NCBI GenBank assembly: GCA_045535295.1
Contig: JAZSLI010000014.1
Coordinates: 55,613-119,612, forward strand
Reading direction: 5' to 3'
DNA length: 64,000 nucleotides
From: Acutalibacteraceae bacterium
GTDB lineage: Bacteria; Bacillota; Clostridia; Oscillospirales; Acutalibacteraceae
Program-made: the position numbers and the translations under genes
In this document: positions 14,508 through 25,117 of the stretch, piece after piece
Numbering within the stretch: position 1 is the stretch's first letter
How the letters are laid out: each line of letters starts with the position of its first letter
The notes under the pieces: model-generated
Databases searched by the model: none
What the model was told of the DNA's origin: nothing
What the model saw: the letters and a program-made list of their open reading frames with translations, nothing else

Positions 14508-14583
14508 GATTCATTAGCTCAGTTGGCAGAGCACTTGACTTTTAATCAAGGTGTCCGGGGTTCGAATCCCCGATGGATCACCA
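14508..14583 (+). tRNA. tRNA-Lys (anticodon UUU), CCA encoded
   Basis: A cloverleaf was built by hand. The acceptor stem is gattcat/atggatc, the D arm is gctc-agttggcaga-gagc, the anticodon stem is cttga/tcaag with loop cTTTTaa, and the T arm is cgggg-ttcgaat-ccccg. The sequence ends in a plus cca. Confidence 0.95.
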
Positions 14584-14705: not shown

Positions 14706-15122
14706 TTAAAAAGACAAATCGCCGTCGTCGTCAATTTCGGTAAAATCAGCCGTAGGAACGGTAAATTCTTCCTCTGGTCCCTCAAATTGATTCGCAGAGA
14801 AATTGACATACATTGATTTCATTGTGTTTGATTTAGGTGTGTGAAGATAGACACAAGAGATTGGTACACCTTTCTCGTAAGCATCAATGCAAAGTTGATA
14901 GTCGGGGTTGGGGTATTTGTTGTCGCCTTTCCCTTTTCTTTCAAATACCATAATATTTATGTATTCGGAGCCATAACTATCAAAAGATTTCATTCCTATT
15001 GTCAAGAAACACTCTTTATCCTTTGTGGCAGGCTTATACCATATCTTTTGGATATATCCACCCAAATGTTGATTTTCTTCGCCATTTCTTGTATTGGCAT
15101 TTGTAATTGATTTTGCTTTCAT
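14706..15122 (-). CDS. Hypothetical 138-aa protein with an SSB-like acidic C-terminal tip (possible non-canonical OB-fold ssDNA-binding protein)
   Basis: The C-terminus EIDDDGDLSF resembles the D-D-D-[IL]-P-F tip of bacterial SSB. The body has beta-rich segments such as INIMVFER and GVPISCVYLH. It lacks the canonical SSB N-terminus. Confidence 0.35.
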   Translation of the reverse strand: MKAKSITNANTRNGEENQHLGGYIQKIWYKPATKDKECFLTIGMKSFDSYGSEYINIMVFERKGKGDNKYPNPDYQLCIDAYEKGVPISCVYLHTPKSNTMKSMYVNFSANQFEGPEEEFTVPTADFTEIDDDGDLSF

Positions 15123-15431: not shown

Positions 15432-16319
15432 TCATTTTTTGCTATGCAAATATGTATCTTCAAGGTCTTTTCTATCTTCGCCGTGACCGAGTGCGACCAT
15501 TGTTTTTGCGACCCCGTTTTTCTCTGCAAATTGCTCTGCCCATAATTTGCGAATTGAATGCACACCACTTTTGACTTCGCCGTTAGGTGTGTAAATATTC
15601 AGTTTTTCGCAACGGCGACGAAGATAACGATTGACCGACCCTTTCTTGACACCGAAAACCTTGTCTTGTGGGTTCTTGCCCTTGATTTGTTCACGGAGCA
15701 GTTTGGCCGTTTCTTCGCTCATAGATAGCACCCTTGTTCTATTACCCTTATCTTTGAAAATAGTGATTTCTTTGTTCTTAAAGTCTATGTGACGAACTTC
15801 AAGTCGTTCAAGGGTGTTGACCCTGACTCCCGTTTGAAAGGCGAAATTAAGGGCGATAAGACTATCGCAAGAACGGGGTGCAGCGAGTATCTTTTCCATT
15901 TCTGCACGGGTAAAAGAAAATTGCTTTATTGTTTCGGTTTTCTCAATCTTGCTTTCATCAACCGACACAGAATAATCGGTTCGGATATTAAAAGTCTTGT
16001 TTACACATTTTGAGATTTTAAGAAAATTGCTTTGATAGGTTTTAATCGTTTTCAAAGAACAACCTTCAGCTGACTTTCGCTCAATATACGATTGGCACAT
16101 ATCGGGGGTTATTTGCTTTACTTGTTTAACCCCGTATTCACTTTTGATAAAAGTAGAGAAATCGTGAGCAAAGTCTTTGAGGTTGCTTTTAGCAGATAAT
16201 GATTTGACAATATGACTGCTATCTGTTTCAGGGTTTGATTTATCTCCGTGCTTATTGAAATGATGACGATAATTTAAATCTATCGCACTATTAAATTGAT
16301 AAAAAAGTGATTTTGACAT
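15432..16319 (-). CDS. Tyrosine site-specific recombinase (phage integrase family)
   Basis: An N-terminal SAM-like core-binding block is present (ITPDMCQSYIERKSAEGCSLKTIKTYQ). Catalytic candidates are R in GVRVNTLERL, H-x-x-R in HSIRKLW, H in LGHG and Y in DTYLH. I prefer the ATG at 16319 (MSKSLF), which has AAGGGG 8 nt upstream. Confidence 0.85.
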   Translation of the reverse strand: MSKSLFYQFNSAIDLNYRHHFNKHGDKSNPETDSSHIVKSLSAKSNLKDFAHDFSTFIKSEYGVKQVKQITPDMCQSYIERKSAEGCSLKTIKTYQSNFLKISKCVNKTFNIRTDYSVSVDESKIEKTETIKQFSFTRAEMEKILAAPRSCDSLIALNFAFQTGVRVNTLERLEVRHIDFKNKEITIFKDKGNRTRVLSMSEETAKLLREQIKGKNPQDKVFGVKKGSVNRYLRRRCEKLNIYTPNGEVKSGVHSIRKLWAEQFAEKNGVAKTMVALGHGEDRKDLEDTYLHSKK

Positions 16320-16352
16320 TTTTGTCGCCCCTTTTGTTGTTAGTGTCGTCAT

Positions 16353-16877: not shown

Positions 16878-17774
16878 TTACCAAGGAGTAGGAACTTCGT
16901 CAACATAATGCCAACTGTTTTCTTTTTCCGTTTCACTGTAATATAATAACTTTCCCCTAAAACCAGCATACCATTTAAGTTCTTGACCATCAACTGTTTC
17001 GGTTTCCAATATTTTTTCAAAAGCTTCTTCTGTTGATTTATAGTACACATTATTTTCACAATCGCCAAATGCACCTGCACCTAAACTTTTTACTGTTTCT
17101 GGTATTACTAACCCATTAAATTGTGAATGATAAAACGCCCTATAGCCGATTCTTTCTACTGTTGACGGAATAGTGATTTTACAATTTCCCATATTATAAA
17201 AAGCATATCTACATATACTTGTTACACCCTCGTCAATTATTACCTCTTTAACAAATCTTGCATATTTGTTCCATGGAAGAGATTTGCCTTTGTTTGCGGG
17301 ATTGGAAAATTGATAAGCCACGAAATATTCATCCATTTCCCCTTTCCCAGAGATATGAAGAGTGAAATTTTCATAATATGTCCAAGTGACATTTTCTCCA
17401 CATTTACCACTATCAATTATTTTTGATTTAACAATTATTTCACAAGTTTCCTTTATGCCGTTTGGACCAGTTGCAGTGATTTTGCACGAGCCTATATTTT
17501 TTCCAATTATTTCACCATCGAAGTATTTTGCAATATTCTCGTCTGTTGATTCCCAAATTATGTCATTCTCATTAAAGTTGCCTGACACTTTGATTAACAA
17601 GGGCTTGATTTCTCCAACCGAGAGTTCTATTTTGGTCTCGGACAATGTTATAGTGTTATTCAAAGTTTCATTGTTTTTTAAATCATTATTAGAAGCGTTG
17701 ATTTTTTTGCTTTCACAAGCGCAAAGAGAAAATAAAACAAAACCTAATAATACCAGAGCCAAAAATCTTTTCAT
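16878..17774 (-). CDS. Lipoprotein with Big_2 (bacterial Ig-like) domain and BspA-type leucine-rich repeats
   Basis: The signal peptide plus lipobox is MKRFLALVLLGFVLFSLCAC. A Big_2-like block is present (VGEIKPLLIKV...WESTDENIA...GSCKITA). LRR_5-like repeats follow (IPSTVERIGYRAFY, IPETVKSLGAGAFGDC). I prefer the ATG at 17774. Confidence 0.7.
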   Translation of the reverse strand: MKRFLALVLLGFVLFSLCACESKKINASNNDLKNNETLNNTITLSETKIELSVGEIKPLLIKVSGNFNENDIIWESTDENIAKYFDGEIIGKNIGSCKITATGPNGIKETCEIIVKSKIIDSGKCGENVTWTYYENFTLHISGKGEMDEYFVAYQFSNPANKGKSLPWNKYARFVKEVIIDEGVTSICRYAFYNMGNCKITIPSTVERIGYRAFYHSQFNGLVIPETVKSLGAGAFGDCENNVYYKSTEEAFEKILETETVDGQELKWYAGFRGKLLYYSETEKENSWHYVDEVPTPW

Positions 17775-17928
17775 TTGCAAATCACCTTTTGTATTTGATA
17801 CCTTAATAATATCATTTTTGTAAAATAAAATCAATCTTTTTGAATAGTCATTTCATATTAATTTCTCTTTATTATAAATTGATTGTTTTTTAAAAAACAA
17901 AATAAGTTGTAAAAAAACAAAAAAGTCA

Positions 17929-17957
17929 TTGACATATTAAATATTTTTGCATATAAT
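17929..17957 (+). promoter_or_regulatory. Perfect consensus sigma-A promoter
   Basis: TTGACA (17929-17934) is followed by a 17-nt spacer and TATAAT (17952-17957). Confidence 0.65.
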
Positions 17958-17963
17958 AATGGT

Positions 17964-18178
17964 GTAAGGATGTAATCCTTATTAGGAAACGTGAGTTTCT
18001 GGACAAACGGCGAAACGAAAGTGGGAACGTTTGTTAAGTGATGAAGTGTGTGTTTATTCGAGTGAATACATTACGGAGCTTATTTGATGGTTGCATATCA
18101 GCCATGACTCGAATAGTTCTTTGAGCGAACAAAAAATATGACGAAGGCCTTGCTCTTTTGCAAGGCCTTTTGTTTTTT
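17964..18178 (+). ncRNA. Candidate ~215-nt structured non-coding RNA (or cis-regulatory leader) upstream of the nuclease-like ORF
   Basis: The unit is bounded by the consensus promoter and a strong terminator. Stems lie at 17965-17981, at 18003-18009/18028-18034, and at 18055-18063/18107-18115 (9 bp, enclosing 43 nt), plus the terminator stem. There is no credible ORF on the sense strand. Confidence 0.5.
18144..18178 (+). terminator. Rho-independent terminator ending the candidate RNA, about 15 nt before the next start codon
   Basis: A 10-bp G+C-rich stem (aaggccttgc / gcaaggcctt) has a 6-nt loop and is followed by TTGTTTTTT. Confidence 0.8.
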
Positions 18179-18193
18179 GAGGGGAATTTAAAA

Positions 18194-18901
18194 TTGGAAG
18201 ATTGTTTAAAAAAATTAGCTGACTCTTTTTCACGCGCAATACAATATGATTATATATACACTTTAGGGGATAAAAAAAGAAATATTAAAATTTCAATCGT
18301 TTCTAATAAAAGAGGCAATTTTACACATGTGTTTGGATTGGACCATTTAAAAGAATCACCTATTGTGATTGGGAACAATATTAAGCAGAAAGAAAAAATT
18401 TTCAAAAAAATAATAGATAAAAAAATTACTATGGATGATATAAAACAAGACCCAAACCTAAATAGTCCGATTGAAAAAACATGGAACGAATTAGAACAAA
18501 GACCTTATACGATATATGATAGAATTATCTTGCTTGAAAAATTCGATGAAATACTTGATGAGTCTGGTAATGGTAAGATATACCCATGGAACAATTCAGA
18601 TTGCCAAGTCGTAACAAATGAAGGTGTTCCAAGGATGGTAAACATAGAAGCCGATTATGTTTTAACTATGCCAACAAAACGCAGTACAAATGAGAAGTAT
18701 TATTTCTTTTTATATTTAGACAACAAACGTAACACAAACTCCGAGGAAATTTCCTTAGTTGTTCATTCTGCTTTTGTTGATTGCTGTGACTTAGTTCGCG
18801 GTCAACATTCTAAATATACTATTCTAAAATTAGATAAACGCTCGAGGGATAAAAAAATAGAAAATCTTTACATACATCCTAATTATAAAGAAGAACAATA
18901 A
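18194..18901 (+). CDS. Hypothetical 235-aa protein, possibly a PBECR-type (barnase/EndoU/RelE-fold) nuclease of mobile elements
   Basis: GAGGGG lies 9 nt upstream of the TTG at 18194, and the ORF-track start at 18158 lies inside the terminator stem. The N-terminal pattern YDYIYTLGD...NFTHVFGLDHLKE resembles what I remember of PBECR4-like proteins, but I could not verify this. Confidence 0.35.
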   Translation: MEDCLKKLADSFSRAIQYDYIYTLGDKKRNIKISIVSNKRGNFTHVFGLDHLKESPIVIGNNIKQKEKIFKKIIDKKITMDDIKQDPNLNSPIEKTWNELEQRPYTIYDRIILLEKFDEILDESGNGKIYPWNNSDCQVVTNEGVPRMVNIEADYVLTMPTKRSTNEKYYFFLYLDNKRNTNSEEISLVVHSAFVDCCDLVRGQHSKYTILKLDKRSRDKKIENLYIHPNYKEEQ

Positions 18902-18988
18902 TAATCGCACGCAATATATTCGTGTAGCAAACGCTTCTTTTTATTGATTCTGTGCGTAGCGGTGCGAAATATTTAAACGCTTTGCTCA

Positions 18989-19017
18989 TTGATATAACAT
19001 CTTGATTATGGTAAAAT
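18989..19017 (+). promoter_or_regulatory. Promoter of the serine recombinase gene (extended -10)
   Basis: TTGATA is followed by a 17-nt spacer ending in TGG, then TAAAAT. Confidence 0.5.
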
Positions 19018-19044
19018 ATCTATAACAGAAAGCGAGGGCTTACG

Positions 19045-20724
19045 ATGAAGAAAGCGGTTATTTATGCGAGATACAGTTCTCACAAACAAAGAGAAGAATC
19101 TATTGAAAGACAACTTGAAATCTGCCACAAGTTTGCAGAAGATAACGATTACGAAATAATTGCGGAATACTGTGACCGAGAGCGAACAGGAAGAAACGAT
19201 AATCGCTTAAACTTTCAAAAAATGATGAAAGATGCCGAGCGAAAAGAGTTCGAGGCAGTTATTATTTTAAAACAAGACCGCTTTGCGAGAAAAAGAGCAG
19301 ATAGTCAAATCAACAAGTTACGGTTAGCAGCCTTTAACATACGGGTATTGTCGGCAACCGAACCAATTCCCGAAGGTTCAAGTGGCATCTTAATGGAGTC
19401 GCTTTTAGAGGGTATTGCCGAATACTATTCTGCCGAATTGGCCGAAAAGGTTACCGACGGAATGAGAAAGAATATTTTGAAAGGCACGGCAAACGGCAGT
19501 TATAGAACCTATGGCTATGACATAGTAGATAAGAAATATGTTGTGAACCCCGATGAAGCCGCCCTTGTCAAAAAGATATTTGAAAAGTATGCCAACGGCG
19601 ACACAGTAAAGTCCATTATTGAATATTGCAATAACCGAGGTTACAAGACTGCACAAGGCAAAGAGTTTGGTTATTGCTACATAGAGCGAATGCTCAAAAA
19701 TAAAAAGTATATCGGCATCTACTCTTGGTCAGACATAGAAAAAGCCGACAGTATTGAAGCCATTGTTGATGAGCGAATTTTCAATAAGGTTCAAAAGCGA
19801 ATAGAAGAAAATGCCAACACAGGAGCAAGGGAAAATGCGGTTGTTGACTATGTATTAAGCGGTAAAGCATTTTGCGGTCATTGTGAGCAACCTTTGGTGG
19901 CAGACTCGGTTACAAAGACAGTTAAAAATGCAAAAACCGATAACTCAAAAAAGGCCGTCTTTGATTTTACTCTGCTTACCTTTAACAAGATAAACGAACT
20001 GCTTTCAGAAGAACCCGAACCCGAATTGCAAGAAGATGCAAACAAACGAGTATATCGTTATTATGTTTGCAGAGGCAGAAAAGAAAAGGCATTTAAAAAT
20101 GGTTGTCACAAACAACGACTTAACAAAGACAAATTAGAAAATGCGGTTATTGCATATACTGCAAATCAATATCTTTGTGACGAGAATATAGAAGAACTTG
20201 CAAAAGCAATTTACAAAGTGCAAAATCAAGTTACAAGCAACCCGAACATAAAAGAAATTGAGTATAAGATATTGGAAGAGGCCAAGAAAATAGAAAACCT
20301 TTATGTTATGGTTGAGTCGGGGCATTTTACAAATAAAGTCTTTGAACGAATAGAACAGGCAGAACTGCGAAAAGAAGATTACGAAAAAGAATTAAGGCGA
20401 TTAAAGAAAGAAATGCCGAAACTGACACTTGAACAAATAAAGGAAAAACTTGGTTTAATAAGACTAACAATGCAGTCGTATGTTAAGTTCGGCGAGATAC
20501 CGATTAAAATCAAAAAAGCATTTTGCGATGCATTTATTGAAAAGGTTTATGTCTTTGACGATGACGACGGCGACGACGGAAACGGCAAGGGCAAAAAGAC
20601 AAGAGTTAAGATAATATTTGATGCATTTGAGTCGGAGGGCCTTTTGGGGTTCGACGATGCTGAAATTGAAATAAGTTCGAAATTGGAAACACTTGGTTCA
20701 CCACGAGCAACTCCGCTTAAATAG
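19045..20724 (+). CDS. Large serine recombinase (resolvase/invertase catalytic domain + recombinase domain + zinc ribbon + coiled coil)
   Basis: The N-terminal catalytic block AVIYARYSSHKQ is followed by RQ and by DR-x-x-R. Cys-rich zinc-ribbon segments are present (CGHCEQ...YYVCRGR...GCH). The C-terminus is a coiled coil with an acidic DDDDGDDGNG tract. Confidence 0.9.
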   Translation: MKKAVIYARYSSHKQREESIERQLEICHKFAEDNDYEIIAEYCDRERTGRNDNRLNFQKMMKDAERKEFEAVIILKQDRFARKRADSQINKLRLAAFNIRVLSATEPIPEGSSGILMESLLEGIAEYYSAELAEKVTDGMRKNILKGTANGSYRTYGYDIVDKKYVVNPDEAALVKKIFEKYANGDTVKSIIEYCNNRGYKTAQGKEFGYCYIERMLKNKKYIGIYSWSDIEKADSIEAIVDERIFNKVQKRIEENANTGARENAVVDYVLSGKAFCGHCEQPLVADSVTKTVKNAKTDNSKKAVFDFTLLTFNKINELLSEEPEPELQEDANKRVYRYYVCRGRKEKAFKNGCHKQRLNKDKLENAVIAYTANQYLCDENIEELAKAIYKVQNQVTSNPNIKEIEYKILEEAKKIENLYVMVESGHFTNKVFERIEQAELRKEDYEKELRRLKKEMPKLTLEQIKEKLGLIRLTMQSYVKFGEIPIKIKKAFCDAFIEKVYVFDDDDGDDGNGKGKKTRVKIIFDAFESEGLLGFDDAEIEISSKLETLGSPRATPLK

Positions 20725-24981: not shown

Positions 24982-25117
24982 GCGTATCGGAGTGTGCGAA
25001 TGGGCGGGTCCTGTGCGACGGGATGCCACGAACCATGTCAGGCGGGGAACCGAGCAGCATTAAGTGGTTTTTTTCGTGCGCCGCAGTAAATCGGTTCATT
25101 CGTACACTCGGGTGCGC
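24982..25117 (+). ncRNA. ffs: Signal recognition particle RNA (small 4.5S-like form)
   Basis: The domain IV core GTCAGGCGG-GGAA-CCGAGCAGC is present, with a GNRA loop and AGCAGC. A long closing helix forms between gcgtatcggagtgtgcgaatg and cattcgtacactcgggtgcgc. The gene is followed by a T-rich run and keeps the conserved position just upstream of dnaX. Confidence 0.8.

Follow-up and report, generated by a model that had tools for sequence, protein, structure and literature searches.

A promoter, a structured RNA and a nuclease-like gene

The DNA analysed here, called the window, is a stretch of 64,000 nt from an Acutalibacteraceae bacterium (GCA_045535295.1, contig JAZSLI010000014.1, positions 55,613-119,612 of the forward strand). 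Its positions 17929-18901 hold a consensus promoter, a hairpin-rich RNA matching the drum family of Rfam, an intrinsic terminator and an open reading frame (ORF) matching PBECR4, a family of predicted nucleases. This arrangement had been singled out from the bare sequence (hereafter the original prediction) as a candidate RNA-protein toxin or defence pair carried by an island or, alternatively, as a riboswitch or attenuator controlling a toxic nuclease. What had been observed was confirmed; the interpretation placed on it is partly supported.

The promoter (17929-17957, + strand) is, as first described, a perfect sigma-70-type TTGACA-17-TATAAT (12/12 consensus score). A consensus scan gave no other 12/12 match within 17400-19400, and both hexamers are kept across five related loci (L001 to L005). 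With its ends placed from the promoter and the terminator, the predicted non-coding transcript spans 17964-18178 (+ strand, ~215 nt) and consists of an extended drum RNA plus the terminator. The absence of a credible sense-strand ORF from this region was borne out: in the ORF listing, no + strand ORF of at least 40 amino acids (aa) has its start downstream of the promoter and ahead of the TTG at 18158, which is the first start codon in the frame of the downstream gene and sits inside the terminator stem. The intrinsic terminator (18143-18178, + strand), announced as a G+C-rich stem with a T-run, was read as an 11-bp stem (18143-18170) with 6 G-C pairs and a 6-nt loop, followed by the U-run TGTTTTTT. 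The Shine-Dalgarno (SD) sequence GAGGGG (18179-18184, + strand) abuts this U-run and lies 9 nt ahead of the TTG codon that opens the 235-aa ORF (18194-18901, + strand), which encodes the PBECR4-family protein, a predicted metal-independent RNase; in L001 to L005, too, a TTG start is in keeping with the frame. The ORF had been noted to possess a ribosome-binding site only. Indeed, with just 23 nt between the terminator stem and the start codon, there is no space for a separate promoter, and expression of PBECR4 would have to rely on read-through of the terminator.

The hairpin-rich RNA locus is real, and its structure is beyond what chance would give. The free energy calculated by RNAfold for 17964-18178 was -66.6 kcal/mol, against a mean of -47.7 for shuffled sequences (z = -4.64), none of the 200 shuffles being as stable. 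Conservation extends over the whole block, promoter and terminator included, in L001 to L005, the proteins of which are only 59-95% identical. TRF found no tandem repeats in 17800-19000, again in line with what had been said of the RNA.

This RNA turned out to be one that is already known. The scan of the whole 64-kb window against Rfam 15 gave a match to drum (RF02958) at 18036-18144 (+ strand), untruncated (model positions 1-112 of 112) and scoring 51.3 bits for a gathering score of 43, with E-values of 1.1e-6 over the whole window and 2.2e-8 over the local region. This full-length match assigns the RNA to the drum family. A match to a known riboswitch or leader family, which would have spoken against the original prediction, did not emerge: Rfam classes drum as an sRNA gene, that is, a candidate small RNA (sRNA) of unknown function. 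The motif was described by Weinberg et al. (2017, NAR 45:10811, PMC5737381); in its passages on drum, that paper states that these RNAs have Rho-independent terminators at the 3' side and are found with a single protein whose gene lies close by, puts drum and similar motifs down as "improbable riboswitches", and counts drum among the few bacterial RNA motifs complex enough to point to a "sophisticated biochemical function". The window RNA likewise ends in an intrinsic terminator beside a particular protein family, and the protein linked to drum in 2017 would thus be PBECR4. A literature search turned up no functional follow-up on drum RNA.

Compared with the canonical copies, which score 98-102 bits, the window copy is a divergent one at 51 bits. 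It has the core nucleotides GGAGC, GGUU, CCA and GAAUAG and the pseudoknot of the family. It differs in that its transcript carries a 72-nt 5' extension folded into three hairpins, in that the -10 box ends ~75 nt ahead of the drum P1 stem instead of the ~35 nt seen at most loci, and in that its pseudoknot is of 6 bp and differs in sequence.

The three hairpins of the extension were all obtained with RNAfold. Hairpin a (17964-17982, + strand, GUAAGGAU/AUCCUUAU) contains the taagga/tcctta stem of the original prediction (17965-17970/17976-17981), for which a compensatory change is seen in L002 and L005 (TAAGGA/TCCTTA to CAAGGA/TCCTTG). Hairpin b (17985-18000, + strand, GGAAAC-GUGA-GUUUCU) keeps its stem in L002 and L005 while its loop varies (GTGA, ATTA, AATA). 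Both a and b are specific to the subfamily of the window. The third, P0 (18002-18035, + strand), directly 5' of P1 and outside the Rfam model, which starts at 18036, includes the acaaacg/cgtttgt stem also predicted from the start (18003-18009/18028-18034); here again the close loci display a compensatory change (ACAAACG/CGTTTGT to ACAAACA/TGTTTGT). Every drum class examined has a hairpin at the P0 position, its sequence being unrelated from one class to the next (GATAGC/GCTATC, TTGCAG/CTGCAA, GTAGATA/TATCTAC, GCACACAAC/GTGTTGTGC); at most drum loci, a TTGxxx-16-TATAAT promoter ends ~35 nt before P1 and the interval contains one hairpin. A shuffle control was non-discriminating (mean best stem of 6.5 bp versus 5.8 bp in shuffles), and the case for P0 rests on its fixed position in spite of unrelated sequences rather than on a significance test. 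From this comparison P0 appears to be general to the drum family.

The remaining stem of the original prediction was a 9-bp long-range helix (tattcgagt/actcgaata). The complementary 9-mers do exist (18055-18063/18107-18115), and compensatory changes affect them, but the real helix is a 6-bp pseudoknot; the outer 3 bp of the proposed stem would compete with P2. Its 5' arm, UUCGAG (18057-18062, + strand), lies in the apical loop of P2 and pairs with CUCGAA (18108-18113, + strand), which immediately precedes the conserved UAG; the pseudoknot thereby links the P2 apical loop to the 3' domain of drum. The helix exists in seven sequence types over 18 representative drums, with versions such as TTCGA/TCGAA, TTCGG/CCGAA, TCCAA/TTGGA, GTAGG/CCTAC, GCTGG/CCAGC and GTTGG/CCAAC. 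A perfect 5-bp match of an arm with its own partner was found in 14 of the 18 drums, against 7 of 212 for pairings between types. These values come from a position-fixed 5-mer test, used in place of an earlier control that failed to discriminate; MAFFT aligns the subfamily of the window with a shift of one column in the P2 loop.

The PBECR4 protein and its linkage to drum

PBECR4 stands for "phage-Barnase-EndoU-ColicinE5/D-RelE like nuclease 4". The original prediction likened the N-terminal part of the protein to PBECR-type nucleases, and Pfam agrees: the ORF matches PF18813 with 39.2 bits (cut-off 27), residues 6-224 corresponding to profile positions 3-183 of 188. When a profile made of 59 members was compared with canonical drum-linked PBECR4, hhalign returned a probability of 99.4% and E = 1.7e-21. 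Residues H45, G48 and R110 are invariant in the 59 homologues, and S192, D154, H51 and W132 are conserved in at least 90% of them; H45 (in an FTH motif) and S192 (in a SAF motif) align with the FPH and SAF motifs of canonical PBECR4. By its score and by this active-site pattern, the window ORF is a PBECR4 family member, and RNase activity is predicted for it. A link to DUF3800 was considered and rejected: DUF3800 is reported to have an RNase H fold, and the protein has no Pfam DUF3800 match.

An AlphaFold2 model computed on a deep alignment reached a pLDDT of 93.3 and a pTM of 0.90 (a 5-sequence alignment had given a pLDDT of only 38). It places H45 in a helix (40-46) and S192 in a strand (186-196). 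The PBECR4 domain was defined by Iyer, Burroughs, Anand, de Souza and Aravind (2017, J Bacteriol 199:e00245-17), whose description of the family gives an early-helix His and a late-strand Ser as active-site pattern. The window protein shares both residues and, like proteins they describe, is a solo form carried by a mobile element. The order of elements in the model (two strands, the His-bearing helix, further helices, then a 5-stranded sheet), read off the prediction with no superposition, can be reconciled with the 'extra strands before the pre-alpha element' of the PBECR description. The passages of that paper on PBECR domains discuss them as injected phage effectors and mention no RNA partner.

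The protein belongs to a rare clade. It had no match in PADLOC, PHROGs or NCBIfam, and tblastn found none in the phage or plasmid collections. A word-indexed protein search gave just 4 close homologues, and 16 with the 59-sequence profile; exhaustive HMMER, run over 1.84 billion representatives, was needed to reach 108 clusters at 50% identity (E <= 1e-3). In the stretch aligned by hhalign, identity to canonical drum-linked PBECR4 is only 23%, and the 235-aa window protein differs from the canonical ~200-aa form by two inserts (about residues 84-106 and 132-150). With its 5' extension and its divergent, insert-bearing protein, the window copy is, by these comparisons, a rare and somewhat atypical variant. 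Many members of the clade add a C-terminal extension of 150-230 aa, for which the long forms (~400 aa) give no Pfam match. The L163 and L164 versions of the long form are broken up into two ORFs (195 and 190 aa). At L160:5133-6113, L163:4536-5720 and L164:1280-2464, the long forms are also followed by a methyltransferase-like gene with weak Spermine_synth/MTS matches.

The association of RNA and protein was examined from both sides. For the RNA, we scanned IMG/VR and the JGI metagenomes for the pattern GGAGC-N9-GGTT-N9-CCA-N6-GAATAG and added the loci already gathered, and neighbouring genes were clustered with ORF starts barred inside the drum RNA. The matches listed include at least 147 genuine units with 70 distinct cores; 133 of the listed units have at least 800 nt of downstream sequence and are the ones to which the following counts refer. 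A PBECR4 ORF follows in tandem in 82 cases, starting within ~100 nt of the 3' end of the core (Pfam E = 1e-31 to 1e-36). In 21 others, it is convergent and ends at the drum terminator (Pfam E = 1e-30). An intact PBECR4 gene thus abuts the drum terminator in 103 of the 133. PBECR4 fragments lie beside 11 units, about 9 have miscellaneous neighbours, and about 10 are orphans. Among the tandem loci, all 35 distinct ones have a terminator-like hairpin with a T-run between the RNA and the gene.

Two layouts depart from the simple pair. First, drum units can be repeated as wholes: three complete units stand in series before a single 401-aa PBECR4-like gene (L159:3060-4000), with a period of ~315 nt and each with its own promoter, its ~80-95-nt leader, its drum and its terminator; at another locus, two drum copies, seen as Rfam matches only, precede the gene (L163:2828-3254). 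Second, the orphan drums (loci L007, L012, L017, L019, L025, L028, L029 and L126, from IMG/VR 3300045988 contigs and one metagenome contig) are carried by contigs that, where their length is known, measure 82-233 kb, and have no PBECR4 gene within the 3-15 kb examined. Directly ahead of each drum stand an endolysin gene (M23 peptidase plus GH25) and two holin-like genes; at the six loci that the promoter scan covered, it revealed no promoter belonging to the drum. Orphan drums could be phage-borne antitoxin mimics, or their partner could be elsewhere in the genome.

From the protein side, drum is found directly upstream of the gene and on the same strand in 20 of 23 PBECR4 loci. The layout described by the original prediction, a promoter, a non-coding RNA, a terminator and an ORF with a ribosome-binding site only, is thus real and is kept among relatives. 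The 20 loci comprise the close homologues L001 to L005, an Oscillospiraceae genome (L006, protein 49% identical), four loci with the ~400-aa form (L159, L160, L162 and L163), six further viral contigs found with the canonical PBECR4 alignment, and four Enterococcus/Streptococcus plasmids on which RefSeq labels the gene product 'PBECR4 domain-containing protein'. All 20 drum-type PBECR4 genes checked thus have a drum; an additional match without one (L191) comes from a gene of which an insertion sequence element has cut off a C-terminal fragment, the part that was matched. For the three remaining loci, which are more distant, Rfam detects no drum. In the Lactiplantibacillus plantarum plasmid NZ_CP150085 (L198:1735-1928), the gene is preceded by three similar hairpins with a loop (A)AGUAAUGG or GUAAUCGG, then a terminator; this structured RNA (z = -3.76), upstream of which only a weak promoter-like -10 element was seen by eye, differs from drum and is nearer to a classical repeated type III antitoxin, the layout being alike. 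In the Erysipelothrix phage phi1605 (MF172979, L196:2228-2500), a TTGACA-16-TATACT promoter, an RNA of ~190 nt and a terminator stand ahead of a PBECR4-like gene; the RNA has the drum-like islands UUGAAAUC, GGAGAC and ACCAAAUAG without being called as drum by Rfam. The third, Streptococcus phage Javan100, matches only in part. Taken from the two sides, the genomic evidence makes drum and PBECR4 a conserved, near-obligate pair of phages, plasmids and islands.

Carriers and neighbouring genes

A small island beside a tRNA-Lys (UUU) gene (14508-14583) carries the window module as cargo. Between that gene and the module lie an unknown 138-aa ORF (14706-15122, - strand), a tyrosine integrase gene (15432-16352, - strand) and a gene for a BspA-type leucine-rich-repeat protein (16878-17834, - strand); a large serine recombinase gene (19045-20724) stands on the other side of the module, the last three being assigned from Pfam. 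For the annotation of the window, the gain is a so far unannotated RNA gene at 17964-18178 which, together with the PBECR4 gene, makes one cargo module of the island. Outside the island, the scan also returned the bacterial small signal recognition particle RNA (RF00169, 64.7 bits, 25002-25100), an ordinary housekeeping gene.

The related loci differ by what surrounds the module. L001 resembles the window in its tRNA end, its integrase and its module, and has no recombinase; it and L003 carry a PASTA-domain gene where the window has the leucine-rich-repeat gene, the flanks being otherwise homologous. The DNA homology of L001 to the window ends at 18892, 9 nt ahead of the PBECR4 stop codon, and the C-terminus of its protein differs (KKPLLST), while L003 and L004 retain the large serine recombinase. 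This may mean that the segment carrying the recombinase has its boundary within the 3' end of PBECR4. No protein-coding neighbour of PBECR4 is conserved: the flanks differ even between loci with ~90% identical DNA.

Elsewhere, the carriers are prophage ends, next to lysis genes and a serine recombinase, and plasmids, in addition to the tRNA-Lys island. As in the window, a serine recombinase gene is found 3' of the PBECR4-like gene of L196. Genes of toxin-antitoxin or abortive-infection type, ToxN, epsilon/zeta or AbiH, adjoin some drum-PBECR4 loci. A ToxN_toxin gene (type III toxin) is convergent with the PBECR4 gene in L005 (1442-1951), the L159 locus also has an epsilon/zeta toxin-antitoxin pair and a resolvase, and an AbiH gene lies directly downstream of the module on an Enterococcus faecalis plasmid (L194:3305-4492).

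Possible function and relation to known toxin-antitoxin systems

We propose that drum and PBECR4 form a type III-like toxin-antitoxin or abortive-infection pair in which drum would be the non-repetitive, pseudoknotted antitoxin of an RNase, a proposal that we rate as evenly balanced between right and wrong. The strong constitutive promoter would provide an abundant structured RNA of ~215 nt ending at an efficient intrinsic terminator, and rare read-through transcripts would be the only mRNA for PBECR4. The latter would be a metal-independent RNase of the BECR fold, using the His of its N-terminal helix and the Ser of its C-terminal strand. The RNA would act in trans on the protein, most likely by binding and neutralising it, as type III RNA antitoxins do. 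If RNA synthesis dropped, through loss of the element or transcription shut-off by a phage, the longer-lived RNase would be freed and would cleave cellular or phage RNA. The model thus supposes RNase activity, toxicity, a direct contact between RNA and protein, and an effect that is inhibitory and not activating.

Several features of the loci argue for this scheme. The convergent pairs, which are transcribed separately, the three-unit array and the orphan drums all indicate that the RNA is not simply a leader and acts in trans. Multi-unit arrays fit the need for an RNA in excess over the protein. In the window, the combination of a perfect promoter, a strong terminator, an SD sequence placed on the U-run and a TTG start codon should give much RNA and little protein. 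A BECR-type RNase normally requires an immunity or antitoxin partner and, as there is no conserved protein partner, the drum RNA is the only candidate neutraliser of this predicted toxic RNase. Finally, the decay of the pair is asymmetric: intact drums are found beside dead PBECR4 genes, and alone in large phage contigs, and none of the 20 drum-type PBECR4 genes lacks a drum, as expected for an antitoxin and its toxin. Even two of the PBECR4 genes for which no drum is detected (L196, L198) carry a structured RNA and a terminator at the corresponding place. The carriers, prophage ends, plasmids and islands, in some loci with ToxN, epsilon/zeta or AbiH genes as neighbours, also suit such a pair.

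Other observations weigh on the opposite side. The original prediction had suggested looking for a nuclease fold with catalytic residues; the H45 and S192 pattern is conserved, but Foldseek found no PDB nuclease resembling the confident model (best E = 0.76), its only hits in BFVD being two unnamed viral (phage) proteins with E about 1e-5, and sequence-profile searches of the PDB gave no solved relative. The literature searched holds no biochemical data for any PBECR4 protein, the name being a sequence-profile prediction of 2017. The many invariant unpaired nucleotides of drum and its pseudoknot would equally fit a cofactor or a substrate RNA. The PBECR partner of the orphan phage drums may sit beyond the 3-15 kb examined. 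Lastly, the samples are redundant, as seen from the reduction of at least 147 units to 70 distinct cores, and biased towards gut metagenomes.

The best surviving alternative, to our mind unlikely but still to be reckoned with, is that drum is a positive partner of PBECR4, acting as scaffold or activator of a ribonucleoprotein enzyme or as the subunit that gives it its specificity, an RNA that would turn on or steer the nuclease instead of restraining it. Co-occurrence is explained as well by this reading as by an antitoxin, and the complexity of drum, its conserved unpaired nucleotides, its conserved pseudoknot and the extra hairpin P0 would all make sense in such an enzyme. A guide-RNA role was rejected, however, as drum has no variable unpaired segment: its variable parts are paired stems. 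That drums outlive decayed PBECR4 genes and occur alone in phages is less expected of an RNA which would be useless without its protein, and the presence of two to three RNA genes per protein gene, together with a terminator that throttles the latter, suggests an RNA in excess, which is typical of neutralisers.

Less probable still is that drum is a substrate, which PBECR4 would mature into a small regulatory RNA serving the element, e.g. in lysogeny, in transfer or in the control of host genes. The BECR RNases can be highly specific processing enzymes, RegB being given as an example in the part of Iyer et al. (2017, J Bacteriol 199:e00245-17) concerned with such enzymes, and the finding of orphan drums behind the last genes of phage lysis operons as well as the classification of drum as an sRNA gene go in the same direction. 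On the other hand, neither target complementarity nor a conserved regulon is known for drum, and there would be no need to hold down a processing enzyme with a terminator and a TTG start codon. A substrate role is compatible with the antitoxin model, since ToxN also processes ToxI.

The last alternative is the one already offered by the original prediction, a cis-acting leader (riboswitch or attenuator) that would sense a ligand or condition and set the read-through into the nuclease gene. It accounts for the RNA preceding the gene on the same strand, with a terminator between them and no separate promoter, in the window and in 82 other listed loci; it is nonetheless largely refuted, and we hold it for very improbable, because drum does not keep to the same-strand, single-copy position of a 5' untranslated region (21 listed loci are convergent, L159 has three complete units in series and L163 two drum copies, and the orphans have no downstream gene on their own strand), because the predicted fold shows no anti-terminator pairing involving the terminator stem, and because the treatment of drum by Weinberg et al. 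(2017, PMC5737381) had judged it improbable as a riboswitch.

To return to drum as the antitoxin of PBECR4, the original idea of a new RNA-protein toxin or defence pair on an island holds insofar as the pair is conserved and a type III-like reading is the best available; it does not hold as to novelty of the RNA, drum and its association with a nearby protein having both been published. The useful outcome is a concrete mechanism for drum, by which an orphan structured RNA described in 2017 would gain a function. If the pair is indeed near-obligate and trans-acting, the question of what drum does becomes reducible to a simple test, the nuclease with and without the RNA. An antitoxin role would moreover extend the type III-like systems to a new toxin fold (BECR) and to a new kind of RNA, and reveal a module, for defence or addiction, that is common in phages of the human gut and in plasmids of Enterococcus. 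More tentatively, and with the odds leaning somewhat against it, drum and PBECR4 would represent a widespread and so far unrecognised class of RNA-antitoxin/RNase-toxin systems, probably of the abortive-infection type, in the mobile elements of Bacillota, the orphan phage drums being antitoxin mimics which disarm the host. A pseudo-ToxI is known to disarm ToxIN in this manner, and the phage orphans would, if drum is an antitoxin, be candidate RNA anti-defence genes.

How does the locus compare with the type III toxin-antitoxin systems (ToxIN, AbiQ/antiQ, CptIN, TenpIN)? The order of elements is the same: a promoter, an RNA, an intrinsic terminator and the gene of a predicted endoribonuclease provided with a ribosome-binding site only. 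A pseudoknot in the RNA and a location on phages, plasmids or islands are also shared, and so is, in some relatives, the existence of several RNA units per gene. The differences concern both partners. Type III antitoxins are short tandem direct repeats of 34-50 nt, in about 2 to 5.5 copies, whereas drum is one long unit of 110-215 nt, only whole units of ~315 nt being repeated (L159, L163). Convergent gene pairs occur for drum-PBECR4. The protein was rightly said at first not to resemble ToxN or AbiQ: Pfam gives PBECR4 and no ToxN_toxin match, and PADLOC gives nothing. Membership of ToxIN, CptIN or TenpIN was accordingly rejected, there being neither short repeats nor a ToxN-type protein; by analogy, the locus may nevertheless work as a type III system does, an assessment for which we see as many grounds to accept as to doubt.

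A close experimental precedent is provided by the abiF-motif RNA RCd22 (RF03085) of a Clostridioides difficile prophage, which binds AbiF directly and thereby neutralises it, whether supplied in cis or in trans (bioRxiv 10.1101/2025.04.15.648962). The two systems are not the same. AbiF has the Abi_2/AbiD/F fold, linked to the ancestors of Cas13, and its partner is made of two short hairpin motifs, where the window has PBECR4 and an RNA of several helices with a pseudoknot. The AbiF system is backed by experiments, and drum-PBECR4 is known from sequence alone. Their architecture, on the other hand, is parallel: in both, a SigA-type promoter, an RNA, a terminator and a toxin or predicted toxin gene follow one another, with a short RNA and a read-through mRNA as products, real or predicted, in prophages of Bacillota and near the phage lysis module.

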